A stretch of 62,445 nucleotides of DNA, counting the filler, from Globobulimina sp. (taxonomy: Eukaryota), in assembly GCA_003354225.1 (NCBI GenBank). It is 26 parts of 26 records of this genome, joined end to end, with 100 filler letters (N's around TTAATTAATTAA, not from the genome) between each part and the next. Parts side by side here need not be neighbours in the genome. Positions count along the whole stretch, not along the records: positions 28,879 to 31,184 come from PIVH01007498.1; 25 more parts are not named here. One strand, written 5' to 3'. The notes under the pieces were generated by a model. It did not search any database. It was not told the origin of the DNA and was given only the letters and a program-made list of their open reading frames with translations. A program made the position numbers and the translations under genes. Shown piece by piece: positions 27,462 to 38,400 of the stretch (within the stretch, counting starts at the first letter, position 1; each line of letters opens with the position of its first letter).

Positions 27462-28778
27462 ATGGCATCAGTCGCAAAAAGATTGAATGGAGATAGCAAG
27501 ATGCGTAAAAAAGACAAGAAAATGAAGAATATCTATACGCCGCGACCCGGTGGCGATCCAGATGACGGTTCCGATCATGATTGTGAAGTCCCCACCGATA
27601 AAAACGGGGACGCGCCAGTCTGGCATCGCCATTTCGAAGCGGATGAGTTATTGGGCCGTTATGAGCCAATCCGAGAATTAGGCCGTGGTTCCTATGGCGT
27701 CGTGTATGAAGGCAAAGTGTTGCGAAAATGGGGCAAATTAGAAGCGGGCCAAAAAGTAGCCATCAAGAAAGTGCGTCGTGTTTTTCACACCGAGACCGAT
27801 GCAAAGAGATTGTTGCGGGAATTGCGAATCTTGCGCATATTACGCAACCATGACAGTATCGTGACTTTGTTCGACATCGTCCCGCCCCAAAATGCGCGCA
27901 AATTTGCAGCCTTGACCTTGGTTTTTGAGTTTGTGGATGCTGACTTGGGCAAAATATTCCGTACCAACCAATTTTTCACCACCTTGCATGTGCAATACAT
28001 GCTATATCAGATCTTATTGGGCATGAAATATATGCACAGCGCCAAGATCGTACACAGAGACCTCAAACCCGCCAATATCTTAATCAACGAAGACTGTTCC
28101 ATCAAAATCTGCGACTTTGGTATCAAACTGCCTTATTTCTATTTCTTTATGTCTATAATCCATGCTTTTCTAGGTTTAGCCCGTGGTTTTAGCGAAGATC
28201 CGGACCAATTAAAAGATAAAGGCAACGACGATGAGAAGCAACACGATTCCAAACAAAACGGCAGAATCGAAGAAAAGAGCAAAAAGCGCACTTTATTGAA
28301 GAAAAAGTACAGTTTCTCTTTTTATTTTCAGTTTCAACGGTTTTTTTTTTCAGTTTAGTTTAAACGTTGAACGCAATTAAACCTGCAAAATGAAATTAAA
28401 CCGAATTGAAAGAAACTAAAAACTCCATCCTTTCACTAATTCTATATTTGCCTATCTGCGCTTTTGCGGCCTCCAAAAAAAGAAAAGCAGGAAAAGACCA
28501 AAAGGGCAAAATGAAGCGCGCCATCACGCGCCATGTGGTGACGCGGTGGTATCGCGGGCCCGAAGTGATATTATTGCAGCAAAAGCAAGCGACGTTGTCT
28601 GCGGTGACATGTGGAGCATCGGCGCCATCTTCGCCGAGTTGTTGCAGATGCAACGCGAGAACCGGCCGGACCCCACCAAGCGCGGTCCCATCTTCCCGGG
28701 CGATTCGTGCTTCCCGCTGTCGATCAAGGACCAAATGGATTACGCTTCGCGCGTCGACCAAATGCAAGTCATCTTCGA
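27462..28778 (+). CDS. Atypical MAP kinase (TRH activation motif); introns 28120-28173 and 28307-28482; -1 frameshift at ~28606; 3' truncated
   Basis: GRGSYGVV, VAIKK, AKRLLRELRIL, HRDLKPANILINEDCSIKICDFG|LARG, TRHVVTRWYRGPE, DMWSIGAIFAELL. Confidence 0.92.
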
Positions 28779-29016
28779 NNNNNNNNNNNNNNNNNNNNNN
28801 NNNNNNNNNNNNNNNNNNNNNNTTAATTAATTAANNNNNNNNNNNNNNNNNNNNNNNNNNNNNNNNNNNNNNNNNNNNTCGATCTGAAAATATAATTTTT
28901 AGTTTCAAACTGATATGATTTGCATGTATTTTCAGTTTGAAACTGAATCTCAAAAATAAATGCAAAAAATATAATCATAACCCAAAATGACATAGTTTCA
29001 AACTGAATTATTACAG

Positions 29017-29255
29017 GAATACCATATATTACACGTTTCTGTGAAAGAACCGTATTGGAATTAACAGCACAAGAAAGAGTATTTAATTACACTCATTCGA
29101 GTACGCGAGTGGTGAATGAGAATTATTATGGAAGATTACATGCATTATTTCCTATTTTGAATGATTTTTCATGGAGATTGGACAAATTAGATGTTATATT
29201 TCGTTGTTGTTTAGTTTTAACAAATGACAGTGTTGAATTATCGCCTATGCGATAA
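29017..29255 (+). CDS. PIF/Harbinger-type DDE transposase, last exon
   Basis: After the TTACAG acceptor: ELTAQERVFNYTHSSTRVVNENYYGRLHALFPIL..IFRCCLVLTN (DDE_Tnp_4 C-terminal N..hS..R..vE..fGrLk pattern). Confidence 0.75.
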
Positions 29256-29731
29256 ATATTAATAAAATTAATTTATTTGTTTCTTTTTGTTTGCATTTTC
29301 AGTTTGTTGTGACTTTTTGATGTTTGTTATGGCTATTTTATGTTTGTTATGGCTGTTCGATTACAAATTATAATTTTAAATATATAGAAACGTTTATAAA
29401 ATGATATCCTTGCACCTCACTGCTATCCTCGCACAAAAGTAATATCCTCGCACAAATATTTCATGAATTTACTCTAAAAAATTGAATATTATAAATTTAA
29501 TATATAAAAAGAGATTGACCAAATAAAAAGACATAAAACATACAAAAAATTACGTAAAATATCCACTATTATTTGTTTTATCAATCGTTTGACAAATAAT
29601 ACTAGCAAATGCAAAAAAAAAATAATAGAAATAACCATTTACCATAAAGGGAGTACATAAAAATAAAAAGAAAATATATAAACTAAAAAAGGTATAATTT
29701 TATTATTTAAAAAAGTAAAAATAGATAATTT

Positions 29732-30836
29732 TTATTGATCGCCAACACCTTTTAAATTCAACGAAATATTAAAAATCCTTTGAGCAATATCCAACGTTCC
29801 AAATCGTCGCTGCACCAAACTCTTGTAAACCAATAAAATAATTTCCCTTTCGGCACCAAAAAATGCACAGGAAACCTCTCCACGAACACTGTCATCGATT
29901 TTCGTCTTTGATAAATCCAATAAAAATGAGGTCGCATCCATCGTTAATGGATAAATACGTAATGACGGATGCGAGTAAACACCATTCCCATTCTCCAAAT
30001 TCACATTCTCTAAATTCCCATTGTCCAAAATCCCATTCTCATCAATTTCTGCGTCCAATTTCAATTTTTTCTTTCTTTTCTTTTTAATCTCAGCCATCGA
30101 ATTAATATCAATCTCAGCCATCGCATCCTTTTTAATCTCATTCGGCTCACTCACTTTCTGCTCAATCACTGCTTTATTCTCATCATCCAAATTATTCTCA
30201 GGCAATGCCATCGCTCCAAAGCCTTCAAATTCAGCCAATTCCATACGGCCACAAATGATATGTTCAAACTTTGCGGTCAAATCATCAGTTTCTTTGTTAT
30301 TTGAATTTCCATCATCATGACGCCGATACCATACAATTTGATCACTGTCAGAATCTGTTTCTGGCGGTAATTGACTTTTTTTCTTTTTCCCGCTTAACTC
30401 CGATCCCAATAAAGATATTATTTGCGTTATATTCGATCCTTTTAATTGTTTAGTTGATGCCATCAATGTTTTCTTATTTTTCTTTGCCTCCGATAATGAA
30501 TTTGCTGCATTCAACGCTTGCGATGCTGTGTTTTGTTTCAGTTTCAAACTGAGTCTCATTTTTGTATCATTGATCTACAAAAATCAGTTTGAAACTAAAA
30601 ATACAAAAATCAGATTGAAACTAAAAATAAAAATCAGTTTCAAACTGAATACCCAAATAACATACAACTCGACGGTGCCACTTTGATATTTTGATTAAAT
30701 CCCATTTGTGATAATGCATTTTGCGTCAAAATCGTCAATTTATCGCTGCCATGATATCCACTGATCGCAATAATCCTTTTTTTCAACGACGTCACCGATC
30801 TGCGCCTGATATATTCGCTGTACACCGTATCCAATC
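29732..30836 (-). CDS. Probable Harbinger second protein (Myb/SANT-like), last two exons 30666-30836 and 29732-30525
   Basis: Intron 30526-30665 (GTATGT..CACAG) joins the exons in frame; RRSVTSLKKRIIAI resembles a Myb-like recognition helix; convergent with the transposase. Confidence 0.5.
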
Positions 30837-30927
30837 CTGTATATTTAATATATTTCGTGTGAGTTTCAAACTAATTTTTGAAGCAGTTTCAAACTGATTT
30901 TGTACCTCAAAAACTAATCAATTTTTG

Positions 30928-31184
30928 CAGTTTGAAACTAAATTCATTTTTGGATTCAGTTTCAAACTGAAAATGCATGCAAATCATTTCAGTTTGAAAC
31001 TAAAATTATATTTTTTCAGATTGAAACTACAACGCTGAGAGGGAGGGGCGGCGAAGCCGCCCTCCCCTCCCTCTCAGTGTTGGTGTATAAAACTCGTAAA
31101 ATATCATTTCAGTTTCAAACTGAAATGATTTGTATGCAGTTTCAGTTTGAAAGTGAATCCAAAAATGAATTTAGTTTCAAACTG
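30928..31184. repeat. Foldback element: ~90-bp inverted arms around a GC-rich central hairpin (31031-31081)
   Basis: 30928-31020 is the near reverse complement of 31091-31184; centre CTGAGAGGGAGGGGCGGC-GAA-GCCGCCCTCCCCTCCCTCTCAG; a homologous arm lies at 28881-28960. Confidence 0.9.
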
Positions 31185-31730
31185 NNNNNNNNNNNNNNNN
31201 NNNNNNNNNNNNNNNNNNNNNNNNNNNNTTAATTAATTAANNNNNNNNNNNNNNNNNNNNNNNNNNNNNNNNNNNNNNNNNNNNTCGATAATATAAATAC
31301 TGCAATAAAAAAAAAGTGATTATTGCGTTTTGTTGCATTAATTTGTGTTTCTGTGTCAGTATCAAAATGATGCGATAATAAATATATGTTCATGTTTGAT
31401 GTTATGATTTTATCCAAATGCAGATTGATAATATTTGTTATAATATTATGATTTGTAATTCTATCTAAAAATTGAGAGGACAAACCTCAGGCTCCAGGAA
31501 TTTAATATCTTCACTATACTTTAATATTATTGTTCGTTTATTATTGTGTAACAAATGATGTATAAAATCTAGATAAACGCTTTCTGAGTTTTTACAGACT
31601 GGCTGCTTTTCAAATACTTAAAATATACTACTAAACAGAACACATTACAACATTATGTGCACAAAATGACACAATATACCTTTGAAAGCCATGTGACACA
31701 CATATTTAATATTTATGAGAAGAAAATGAA

Positions 31731-36655: not shown

Positions 36656-38400
36656 CTATTGGACAAAATGCGAGAATGCCCTGTGGGATAATCCTTTTGT
36701 TAGGTTGACCCTGTTGTCCTTAGAATCAATCAAAATGCCCTCTTTTGCCAGGAGATGTGAAGGCCGGTTTTCTTTTGTCTTGATTTGAATGGAATCAGCA
36801 TTGAATTTATGGGCACGATTACCATTTTCAAGAGTGCAGAAATATCCAAAATTGTGACCAGATTGAGCCATATGAGCATAGAGTGCATTACTTTCTTTTT
36901 CTTTTAAAATCGCATCTGAGTGTTCTTTCAGGCGAATGCGCAGATTTCTTTCAGTTTTCCCAATATAAACCTTATTACAGTCCGAACATTTAATCTGATA
37001 CACCACATTTTTCTCATCATAGAAGTCACATTCAGGAGAATTCTTGGACAAAAGCTGACCCAAAGTACAACATTTCTTGAAAAATACTTGAATATTGAAT
37101 CGGTTGAGAAATAACCTAATCTGTTGAGATAGCTTAGGAACATATGGAAGACCAATTTTTGGGGCCTTTTCATCTAAAGGTTTTCGTTTTGCGCCAATTG
37201 GGTCAAGCTTTGACTGGATAAGAGCAGATGGAAACCCACAATTTTGAAATGCCAAACTTAGATTTTCTTTTTCTTCTATGAGTATCTGATGAGTAGATGA
37301 AATTTGATGAGCCCTTCTGGCTAAACAATGAATTGTGCCAACCTTTTGATTGATTGGTTGACAAGAGTTAAAATGGATGTATCGATTGGAATGGGTAGGT
37401 TTTCGATAAACTTTAATCAAAAGGCCATTAGTTTCGCGATAAAGATCACAATCTAAGAAGGGCAGTCTCTTATTGTCTTCAAATTCGGCCTTAAAATGTA
37501 TTCTTTTTAAATGATCATGAAGATTGAACTGTTCAAAAATTGTCCTCAGTTCATCAATGTTTTCAGCCAACAAAAATATATCATCCACATAACGTGCATA
37601 ATATAGGAGAGAAGTGTTTGTCATCAAAGCCTCATGTTCAAACTCTTCCATGAATAGACCTGCAAGAAAACCAGATAAGGGAGATCCCATCGGCAATCCA
37701 TATGTTTGCTTGTAATAATTTCCATTAAAAGTAAATAGTGTTGCTTCGATACAAATTTGAACAAATCCAACAATTCGACATGCCCGCAACATGGTCTTAT
37801 GATTCCATAAATCAGAATTTTCTTTCAAACGACGTTTTAAAATTTTAATTGCTGTAGGCACATGGACATTGGAAAAAAGTGAGTCAACATCAAATGAAGC
37901 CATACATGTATTTGACCAATCAACTTTAAGGGATTGCAGCTGGGAAATAAAAGATGAGGTGTCTTTAAGATGAGTGGGACGAATACCAAGAAGGGGACTT
38001 AAGATTGTAGCTAAATGAGATGCCAATGGGTGAAAATATGAACCAACACAGCTAACAATAGGTCGAAGTGGACAATTTTCTTTGTGGATTTTGGGTAAAC
38101 CATAGAAATAGGGAGTTTTAGATCGATCAACAGATGGCAAAAGATAATAACGTCTTTCTTTCTTAATTTCCCTGTTGCTGATTGCAACATCCATAAGTAA
38201 TAGCAAATTTTCTCTATTTTTCTTCTGTTGCTTAACAAAATCAACTCGTGAGAGAAGTTCGTATGTTTGCACATCTGAGAGAATATGTTCACATTTGTTA
38301 ATGTATGATTCTGGATCCATCAAAACCGTTTTTTCCCCTTTGTCTGCTTTCATAATTTTAATTTTCTTCTCCTTTACATCTTTCTGTAATGTTTTCACAG
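36656..38400 (-). mobile_element. Penelope-like retroelement ORF: reverse transcriptase + GIY-YIG endonuclease (5' truncated)
   Basis: KADKG, YGLPKIHK..PLRPIVS, SFDVDSLF, GLPMGSPLS, RYVDD, YRKPTH, VVYQIKCSDCNKVYIGKT. Confidence 0.97.

Follow-up and report, generated by a model that had tools for sequence, protein, structure and literature searches.

Foldback repeats of a 13-bp palindrome in the non-coding gaps of a contig with a PIF/Harbinger transposase exon

Drosophila foldback (FB) elements and foldback-type MITEs have long inverted arms composed of short sub-repeats and form near-perfect hairpins, and the 12-bp TnpA motifs of En/Spm are subterminal protein-binding arrays of a cut-and-paste element. 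The repeat element described here is like the FB elements by anatomy, but it is much shorter (257-285 bp in the window and in its metagenomic relative L028), has a GC-rich core and carries a GCGAAGC loop that is conserved between two sub-families. With the En/Spm arrays it shares a motif of 12-13 bp repeated in both orientations at irregular short spacing, whereas the motif here is itself a palindrome and a putative binding site.

PIF/Harbinger transposons and Tourist-type MITEs (Harbinger3_DR, Ping/mPing) are alike in having a DDE_Tnp_4 transposase, a second gene and short non-coding inverted-repeat relatives. According to the available part of PMC9710019, the partner protein of Harbinger3_DR binds a short motif repeated subterminally, a 9-bp motif recognised by a Myb-like protein, and an excerpt of PMC13668399 likewise describes a partner protein that binds terminal or subterminal sequences. 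The present locus differs in having no Myb/SANT/MADF match in the exons present and in carrying its arrays in gaps within genes, as opposed to demonstrated element ends. Introners (Micromonas, Aureococcus, dinoflagellates and fungi, with hairpin introners in Amoebophrya) resemble it as non-coding, hairpin-capable inverted-repeat elements that fill candidate introns, as far as the excerpts of PMC7789003 and PMC12130899 describe them. Unlike in introners, no host-intron copy was seen here, one related copy lies 3' of a stop codon and there is no border duplication at the best-defined candidate intron (intron 2).

Parts of two convergent genes

The window, meaning the whole stretch of DNA analysed (62,445 nucleotides), is a chain of 26 contigs of 2304-2307 bp each, ordered by size and joined by linkers of 44 N, TTAATTAATTAA and 44 N. 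The palindrome locus at 28879-31184 is exactly one whole contig of 2306 bp, with 1202 bp (52%) in ORFs. Its left and right ends each break within a palindrome array, and the Harbinger element ends (terminal inverted repeats and TWA target duplication) lie outside it. The coding stretches and the spacer between them are as follows.

29017..29255, + strand: last exon of a PIF/Harbinger DDE transposase (DDE_Tnp_4); acceptor TTACAG ends at 29016, stop codon at 29253-29255
29256..29731, no strand: spacer between the two convergent stop codons, AT-rich, without a palindrome site
29732..30525, - strand: the second gene's last exon, with 263 codons in frame and its stop codon at 29732-29734; no Pfam match
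30666..30836, - strand: exon A, the upstream one of the second gene's two exons here, with 57 codons and an ATACAG acceptor ending at 30837; no Pfam or homologue match

The original prediction had assigned 29017-29255 to a Harbinger transposase and named a profile search as the check. That search bears the assignment out: for the ORF at 29007-29255, Pfam DDE_Tnp_4 scores 31.7 bits (E 1.5e-7), over its curated cut-off of 24.8. The match spans profile positions 95-158 of 158, that is 64/158 positions of the domain; a second match, to Plant_tran, is weak and below its cut-off (E 0.003). A protein search with this exon at longer lengths gave no match, and tblastn of the three exons against 111 loci and the window returned self-matches only.

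On the opposite strand, the region 29732..30525 contains an open ORF of 280 codons, for which the chance at this composition is about 2e-11. The product of this last exon combines a basic stretch, KKKRKKK, with others that are acidic and N-rich, and its C-terminal portion of about 82 aa is conserved. Exon A lies in an open frame of 76 codons at 30640-30870 (chance about 0.001) and has no start codon before its last 13 codons; one or more further 5' exons are therefore expected beyond the contig.

The sequencing data comprise three runs from one sample of one study, in contig form, of which run X1 was aligned to the locus. Of the 40 substitutions listed in its variant contigs, 27 were classified for the tally of coding constraint. 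A variant contig has 13 listed differences within the transposase exon, of which 10 are synonymous; for the second gene, this holds for 7/8 listed differences at the 3' end and 2/6 in the middle. Taken over the transposase exon together with the second gene's (ORF2) 3' end, substitutions fall at third codon positions in 16/21 cases (binomial p 7e-5). We regard the convergent second gene as real because the variant copies differ mostly at synonymous sites, and it is, to judge from these sequence differences, under purifying selection.

The sole relative of the second gene is P0001, a protein fragment of 132 aa found by HMMER among 1.84 billion representatives (E 1.3e-51), which stands alone in its own cluster and comes from a 660-nt contig. 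Protein searches were negative for ORF2 exon B (near lengths) and exon A (longer lengths); scores in the ESM Atlas reached at most 0.83 and gave no lead, PDB sequences matched only at E of at least 0.38, and an AF2 model of the product has a pLDDT of 36.6. The expectation of two convergent genes, one encoding a Myb/SANT partner, thus held in part: the second gene is real and constrained, but its two exons have no Myb/SANT/MADF Pfam match at E up to 1, and the 5' exon or exons, the usual place of the domain, lie off the contig. The second gene is a lineage-restricted orphan and presumably encodes the element's accessory protein.

Palindrome sites and the foldback family

The palindrome YAGTTTSAAACTR has 16 sites on the contig against a chance expectation of 0, counted on the 11-nt core AGTTTSAAACT with one mismatch allowed. 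They are the same 16 that had been predicted, and they fall into three groups in this core scan (at most one mismatch).

28901, 28934, 28994: left cluster
30540, 30586, 30612, 30636: gap 30526-30665
30862, 30885, 30929, 30958, 30991, 31018, 31111, 31144, 31173: right part of the contig

A scan of the whole window with the exact pattern CAGTTTSAAACTR returned 18 strand matches, corresponding to 12 sites, all within 28900-31184, compared with a mean of 0.00 matches over 100 shuffles. At the stringency of the core scan, the other 25 contigs (about 58 kb) contain 0 sites. The motif is thus absent from the rest of the window, as had been predicted, but that rest consists of 25 unrelated contigs, so the statement amounts to absence from these contigs only; in a chain of unrelated contigs, absence elsewhere tells little about the locus. 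Also in line with the prediction, 0/16 sites lie in the ORF stretches 29017-29255, 29732-30525 and 30666-30836. The 16 sites represent three clusters, not 16 independent events, and one cluster is a 257-bp foldback; that all three clusters lie outside ORFs is unremarkable at 52% coding (0.48^3, about 0.11). Within an array the palindromes are spaced 23-33 bp apart. In the searched literature there was no occurrence of the palindrome 13-mers; the 11-mers occur in 21 papers, and among the 15 of these that were listed none concerned a transposon in the accessible portions.

The clusters were resolved into the following repeats and candidate introns.

28879..29005, + strand: partial foldback arm with three sites (28901, 28934, 28994), truncated by the left contig end and directly upstream of the transposase exon
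30526..30665, - strand: candidate intron 2, 140 nt long, in the second gene; ends GTATGT..ACAG, phase 1, four palindrome sites
30837..30927, - strand: proximal part of the open-ended gap 3, between the foldback and exon A, with sites 30862 and 30885 23 bp apart
30928..31184, no strand: whole foldback element of 257 bp (inverted repeat I1), with seven sites, terminating exactly at the right contig end
31035..31077, no strand: core hairpin of the foldback, GC-rich, whose loop GCGAAGC occupies 31051-31057

The whole foldback is the sole real long inverted repeat in the window. Its arms, 30928-31051 and 31061-31184, are 124 nt each, 88% complementary and 9 nt apart, and each starts and finishes with a palindrome. 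It folds at -116.1 kcal/mol as DNA (z -21.1) and at -171.2 kcal/mol as RNA of the gene strand (z -22.6). The sequence GGCGAAGCC occurs once in the window against 0.02 expected. An Rfam search returned 16 matches, all under their gathering scores; those on the foldback were look-alikes of miRNA precursors, the best at 44 bits against a threshold of 140.

The left array is another copy of the foldback arm. Alignment A2 shows this array matching the whole foldback's left arm in reverse complement, beginning with the contig's first base. Its segment 28897-28955 has 93% complementarity with 30947-31005 and 86% identity with 31107-31165, and the array matches the nhmmer arm profile at E 2.4e-20. The contig thus holds one whole and two partial copies, every one with one flank cut by a contig end. 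None of the other 25 contigs matched this profile at E<0.1, and a suspected relic in a kinase intron (about 28300-28420) was dropped for that reason.

Outside the window, a scan of metagenomes for motif pairs gave 72 loci, all of which were counted for sites and searched by BLAST and 19 of which were inspected in sequence. Among these 19, only L028 and L046, both from one record set, share architecture or spacer similarity with the window element. L028 is a 285-bp foldback with 139-nt arms that are 83% complementary and carry ten sites, mostly 24 bp apart; it has the same GCGAAGC centre as the window element within a different GC-rich stem. Two extra sites follow it, in the same layout as in gap 3 of the contig, and it lies upstream of an ORF in an ambiguous context. 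L046 is a cluster of three sites, 81% identical to the window arm over 59 nt, located 3' of a U-box gene, 115-200 nt past its stop codon. The other inspected loci were unrelated satellites, tandem arrays or coding repeats, and the remaining 53 had no BLAST match; five of the latter (L002, L038, L042, L061 and L062) have three core sites each. Scans of viruses (1 locus) and prokaryote genomes (38 loci) stayed at background level; the one of these that was inspected, L083, is a bacterial look-alike.

A comparison of the window arms with those of L028 gives an identity of 72-87% for motif columns and of 51-61% for spacer columns (pooled, 202/250 against 168/290), a sign of constraint on the motif. 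As in MITEs and foldbacks, both elements are short and non-coding, with long terminal inverted repeats: the arms measure 124 nt in the 257-bp window element and 139 nt in the 285-bp element of L028. The palindromes are better described as sub-repeats of a foldback (MITE-like) family than as introns built from a palindrome.

Candidate introns and the origin of the arrays

The sites had been predicted to lie in three introns. The gap at 30526-30665 is the only complete intron candidate among them (GT..AG, frame restored); the other two gaps run off the contig. Removal of candidate intron 2 joins two ORFs of different frames, in phase 1 on both sides. Its tandem array at 30576-30652 is made of 24-26-bp units (Tandem Repeats Finder: period 26, 2.8 copies), and as RNA the intron folds at -40.7 kcal/mol (z -5.85). 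All three gaps have an ACAG acceptor and are in phase 1. In candidate intron 2, the first and last sites leave just 18 and 13 nt on their outer sides, and the distance from the last site to the acceptor is 11 nt in gap 1 and 24 nt in gap 3. No direct repeat is present at the borders of intron 2 (..GAGTT|GTATGT compared with ACACAG|CATCGC).

The reading that we favour, and to which we give an even chance on the strength of the sequence features above, is that a Harbinger element carries, nested in its introns, a foldback (MITE-like) family that probably bears protein-binding sites. The contig would then be an internal piece of a PIF/Harbinger-type DNA transposon from an AT-rich eukaryote, with the last exon of the transposase and, in convergent orientation, the two 3' exons of another gene of the element. 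The 13-bp palindromes would be the repeating sub-units of a dispersed foldback family, in each member of which a GC-rich hairpin with the GCGAAGC loop is flanked on either side by an arm of palindrome sites; one whole copy (257 bp) and parts of others occupy the non-coding gaps of both genes. Within this reading, the identity of the transposase, the constraint on both coding regions, the structure of the foldback and the presence of related copies elsewhere are established. These gaps are putative spliceosomal introns in which the repeats may be tolerated because they are spliced out, and the strong hairpins could fold out of the pre-mRNA and shorten the effective intron. It is plausible, by analogy with the subterminal motifs of other Harbingers, that the palindrome is a protein-binding site, possibly the recognition site of a dimeric DNA-binding protein; the likeliest binder would be the element's own accessory protein or transposase. 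The foldbacks may have entered the autonomous element as its non-autonomous partners or as copies of its end-type arrays. If they are spliced and are partners of the Harbinger, the locus would be a compact case of hairpin MITEs that are tolerated in genes, or that create introns, with a transposase at hand. The locus is an unusual layout of known kinds of mobile DNA, with no new mechanism; what is new is a Harbinger lineage whose second gene is an orphan, and a family of foldback repeats in which a 13-bp palindrome is conserved and the core has a GCGAAGC loop.

One observation counts against simple nesting: there are three arrays in 2.3 kb and none in the 58 kb of other contigs. This density exceeds that of random nesting, and a closer link is therefore needed, be it function, local self-insertion or intron creation. 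The common ACAG acceptors and phase 1 could hint at a shared intron-making origin.

Such an origin is the core of an introner-like explanation, in which insertion of the foldback created the three introns and supplied their splice signals (the extended palindrome contains TTTCAG in either orientation). The arrays take up the gaps nearly as far as the splice sites, acceptors and phases agree in all three gaps as described above, and, relative to transcription, the arm that adjoins the exon is of the same type in each gene (93% compared with 86% identity); hairpin-forming and TIR-type introners are known as well, as the excerpts of PMC7789003 and PMC12130899 describe. We nonetheless consider this explanation unlikely. 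The 25 other contigs, about 58 kb with many host genes, contain neither a site at one mismatch or fewer nor an arm-profile match at E<0.1; the sole definable host intron (28120-28173, 54 nt) lacks the repeat; the L046 cluster lies downstream of the stop codon of the U-box gene; and intron 2 has no direct repeat at its borders. Host introns are also short, so that insertion into an existing intron of about 50 nt would appear identical. The suggestion in the original prediction of an introner-like family found no support here: no host-gene intron in the 25 other contigs, a very small sample, bears the repeat, and the L046 copy follows a stop codon.

Just as improbable, in our estimate, is that the end arrays represent long inverted repeats of the element itself, terminal or subterminal, so that the contig would be a nearly whole, internally deleted non-autonomous Harbinger with its left end joined to the tail of the transposase. 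The left and right arrays are indeed inverted (93% over 59 nt), both contig ends fall in arrays, only 64/158 transposase profile positions are present, and Harbinger partner proteins bind subterminal motifs according to the accessible text of PMC9710019. Against this, the transposase ORF opens at a consensus acceptor (TTACAG|G) right behind the array, and exon A is open for 76 codons with no start before its last 13, so that more 5' exon is expected past the right array. Moreover, the third array (30526-30665) is internal and bounded by a frame-restoring GT..AG, and the right array is a complete foldback and not a single end.

We rate as slightly more doubtful still the proposal that the two genes of a Harbinger family are interrupted by the family's own foldback partner, a hairpin of arrayed protein-binding palindromes that inserts in coding DNA and is removed as an intron by means of its TTTCAG/ACAG acceptors and hairpin folding. 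If this were true, an intron-generating non-autonomous element would be tied directly to an identified autonomous transposase, and binding sites for the transposase or its partner would lie in the element's own introns, permitting feedback on expression.

Least probable of all is that the palindrome works outside transposition, either as the site of a host factor (its core TTTGAA/TTCAAA is of the CHR type bound by CXC-domain proteins) or, through hairpin RNA of the intronic foldbacks, in silencing of the element by small RNAs: the folding is very strong (RNA -171 kcal/mol, z -22.6; intron 2, z -5.85), the miRNA-precursor look-alikes exist below threshold (44 bits against a gathering score of 140) and the 11-mer occurs in a paper on LIN54/CHR recognition, in the part of it that was accessible, but no Rfam family reaches its threshold, a likeness of six bases to CHR could be chance, and the site occurs in none of the other 25 contigs and is therefore no common host promoter element. 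The LIN54/CHR paper was one of the matches listed for the 11-mers.

Run X1 across the arrays

Of the 65 contigs of run X1 that aligned to the locus, 25 did so only in part, and their loose ends and joints are concentrated in the arrays, which indicates that array-like sequence continues into other contexts. No exon-exon joint appears in the alignment, and the three joints listed are cross-joins from one array to another. The bins 29264-29417 were uncovered; depth in such an alignment is no measure of copy number. We rejected an assembly artefact as the source of the layout, as contigs of this run bridge the exon-array junctions with no differences (records 1, 7 and 8, with record 6 reaching the intron edge). 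Run X1 may, however, itself be the source of the assembly. One variant contig covers about 30573-30690 and has the same exon-array junction; within the sites it has a single change, 30614 A>T, which brings the palindrome back to the consensus.

The focal contig and its two genes

The window holds several loci rather than one, and comprises 26 stretches of 2304–2307 bp each, in falling size order, separated by linkers of 44 N, TTAATTAATTAA and another 44 N (for example, 28779–28878 and 31185–31284). As this is an artificial chain of unplaced contigs, linker-spanning features and arguments from neighbourhood across contigs are void. Exactly one entire contig, of 2306 bp and 31% G+C, occupies 28879–31184. 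The remaining 25 contigs hold usual eukaryotic host genes, including those for an ion channel, a mitochondrial carrier, a kinase, FANCI, tubulin-tyrosine ligase, a P450, WD40 proteins and others, and no second Harbinger piece was found on them. A retroelement lies alone on one of these contigs, where a 580-codon open reading frame (ORF; 36659–38398, minus strand) encodes an RVT_1 reverse transcriptase domain (E 4.5e-14). In the kinase gene on the adjoining contig, a clear 54-nt GT..AG host intron (28120–28173) splits the DFG|LAR motif, and the frame switches at about 28560–28600, between the overlapping plus-strand ORFs 28400–28777 and 28420–28776, through either an assembly frameshift or a very short intron. 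The main features of the focal contig are as follows.

29007–29255, plus strand, ORF containing the transposase exon
29732–30525, minus strand, last exon of the second gene (ORF2)
30526–30665, minus strand, gap between the exons of the second gene (candidate intron 2)
30666–30836, minus strand, exon A of the second gene
30928–31184, foldback element

The plus-strand ORF matched Pfam DDE_Tnp_4 with 31.7 bits (curated cut-off 24.8; E 1.5e-7) over profile positions 95–158 of 158. This homology identifies it as the C-terminal portion of a PIF/Harbinger transposase, as had been proposed for the exon at 29017–29255, which from its sequence opens at an acceptor, TTACAG|G (29016/29017). On the minus strand we found two ORFs in different frames, of 280 codons (29735–30574) and 76 codons (30640–30870), with chances of about 2e-11 and 0.001, respectively, at the composition of the contig. 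Removal of the 140-nt gap between the exons, which starts with GTATGT at 30665 and finishes with ACAG at 30526, joins both ORFs in phase 1. Exon A opens at an acceptor, ATACAG|G (30837/30836), and lacks a start codon until its final 13 codons, so a further 5′ exon is expected beyond the contig. The acceptors at 29016/29017, 30526/30525 and 30837/30836 share the reading ACAG, and each of the three gaps is in phase 1, in what is a small sample.

The original prediction called for profile searches of the products for DDE_Tnp_4 and a Myb/SANT-like domain; the former was found, and the latter was not found in the 3′ exons, the 5′ part, where such a domain usually lies, being off the contig. No Pfam domain was detected in the second-gene exons on the contig at E up to 1, and neither these nor the transposase exon had a match in three word-index protein searches. 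The ESM Atlas, PDB sequences and an AF2 model gave no lead on the second gene. When 1.84 billion representatives were searched in full with HMMER, a sole relative emerged, P0001, a 132-aa protein (E 1.3e-51) that forms a single-member cluster and comes from a 660-nt contig; it is approximately 90% identical to the second gene across the last 82 residues and far less so upstream.

Only three sequencing runs, all from one sample and available as contigs, contain the focal contig. In one of these, X1, variant contigs differ from it by 7–10% (18 letters in 184 nt and 11 in 155 nt). Of 51 substitutions, 40 were listed, and we classified the 27 in ORFs, leaving out those in the spacer (8) and intron 2 (5). 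Among those listed, 10 of 13 were synonymous in the transposase exon, 7 of 8 at the 3′ end of ORF2 and 2 of 6 in its middle. In the transposase exon and the ORF2 3′ end together, 16 of the 21 listed substitutions fell at third codon positions (p 7e-5), which indicates purifying selection on both frames among the copies, be they paralogues or alleles. The long open frames and this third-position bias agree with the two convergent genes predicted.

Palindrome arrays and the foldback element

The exact 13-bp palindrome, CAGTTT(C/G)AAACT(G/A), gave 18 strand matches, representing 12 sites, with 0.00 expected. With at most one mismatch in the 11-nt core there were 16 sites, all on the focal contig and at the places where about 16 copies had been reported, and none in the other 25 contigs; the claim that the window has no copies elsewhere is thus correct, 'elsewhere' meaning 25 unrelated contigs. 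The reported absence from exons also held, with 16 of 16 sites outside the three ORF stretches. The sites group into just three clusters, so ORF avoidance is by itself without significance (approximately 0.11 for three clusters).

Foldback elements are a known kind of mobile DNA. The right cluster includes one of 257 bp, the window's sole real long inverted repeat, with arms (30928–31051 and 31061–31184) that are 88% complementary and 9 nt apart. Predicted folding energies were −116 kcal/mol for DNA (z −21.1) and −171 kcal/mol for gene-strand RNA (z −22.6). Each arm starts and ends with the palindrome, sites within arms are 27–33 bp apart, and the centre is a GC-rich hairpin (31035–31077) with a GCGAAGC loop. 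The contig terminates exactly where the foldback ends. The arm recurs in the left cluster, which is 93% complementary to 30947–31005 and can be aligned from the contig's first base, so a second foldback probably lies just to the left. Taken in each gene's direction, both genes have the same arm type beside the exon.

The stretch between exon A and the foldback has two more sites, 23 bp apart, and intron 2 holds four, three of them in a 24–26-bp tandem array (folding z −5.85). One X1 variant contig covers the junction of exon A and this array (approximately 30573–30690), so at least two copies have it; its sole change within a site restores the consensus.

Relatives outside the contig

Scanning metagenome contigs for two sites 8–38 nt apart yielded 72 loci, all of which were subjected to site counting and BLAST. 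Seventeen of the 19 examined individually were unrelated, being satellites, tandem arrays or coding repeats. A further 53 had no BLAST match; five of these carry three core sites each. Metagenome contig L028 has a 285-bp foldback with 139-nt arms that are 83% complementary, ten sites mostly 24 bp apart and, matching the window layout, two additional sites beyond it. It lies upstream of an ORF open from base 383, an ambiguous context. Motif columns are 72–87% identical between the window and L028 arms, compared with 51–61% for spacers, a modest indication that constraint in the arms lies with the palindrome. GCGAAGC is central to both sub-families (31051–31057; L028:150–156) despite unlike GC-rich stems; d(GCGAAGC) is an unusually stable DNA mini-hairpin. 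After the L028 ORF comes a tandem repeat (965–1269) of approximately 40–80 nt with GGATGGATTGGTTTGGATGG-like units. On metagenome contig L046, a three-site cluster, 115–200 nt beyond a U-box gene's stop codon, is 81% identical to the window arm over 59 nt (BLAST). Scanning viral sequences and prokaryote genomes yielded no more than background, and an arm profile search of the other 25 window contigs gave no match at E<0.1.

Possible origins of the arrays

The reading we favour, to which we give about an even chance, is that the contig would come from the inside of a Harbinger-type transposon, with copies of a MITE-like foldback family sitting in its non-coding gaps. The gaps would be introns, three having been predicted: that at 30526–30665 is complete, GT..AG and frame-restoring, and the other two, open-ended, are deduced from their acceptors and the need for upstream exons. 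The palindrome would be a site for protein binding, with the element's partner protein or transposase as the most likely binder, by analogy with Harbinger3_DR, in which, according to PMC9710019, a Myb-like protein binds a subterminal motif; PMC13668399 likewise has a Harbinger partner protein binding terminal or subterminal sequence. Three arrays lie within 2.3 kb, compared with none across 58 kb of other contigs, which argues for a link between foldback and Harbinger beyond random nesting.

That the three introns arose as introner-like elements would fit gaps filled by arrays, with ACAG at every acceptor and phase 1 throughout, but is unlikely given that the repeat is absent from host introns in the window contigs and that one relative (L046) is non-intronic. 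The two end arrays match inverted at 93%, as they might if they were the terminal repeats of a Harbinger deletion derivative; we doubt this, because an acceptor adjoins the left array, exon A lacks a start codon and the third array is internal. It is quite improbable that the palindrome is a host-factor site or the foldback has a hairpin-RNA role, for which support comes down to fold strength and Rfam look-alikes below threshold.

Harbinger elements with MITE partners (PMC9710019, PMC13668399) and hairpin-forming introners (PMC7789003, PMC12130899) are known kinds. The 13-mer palindrome was not found in the literature searched. What is new is a Harbinger lineage whose second gene is an orphan, together with a foldback family that has a GCGAAGC core and a palindrome that is conserved; no new mechanism is shown. 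Separately, an array of TTCAGTTTSAAACTGAA-like palindromes, motif look-alikes in an unrelated context with no GC hairpin, occupies an intergenic stretch (260–680) of L083, a Cyclobacteriaceae MAG contig.
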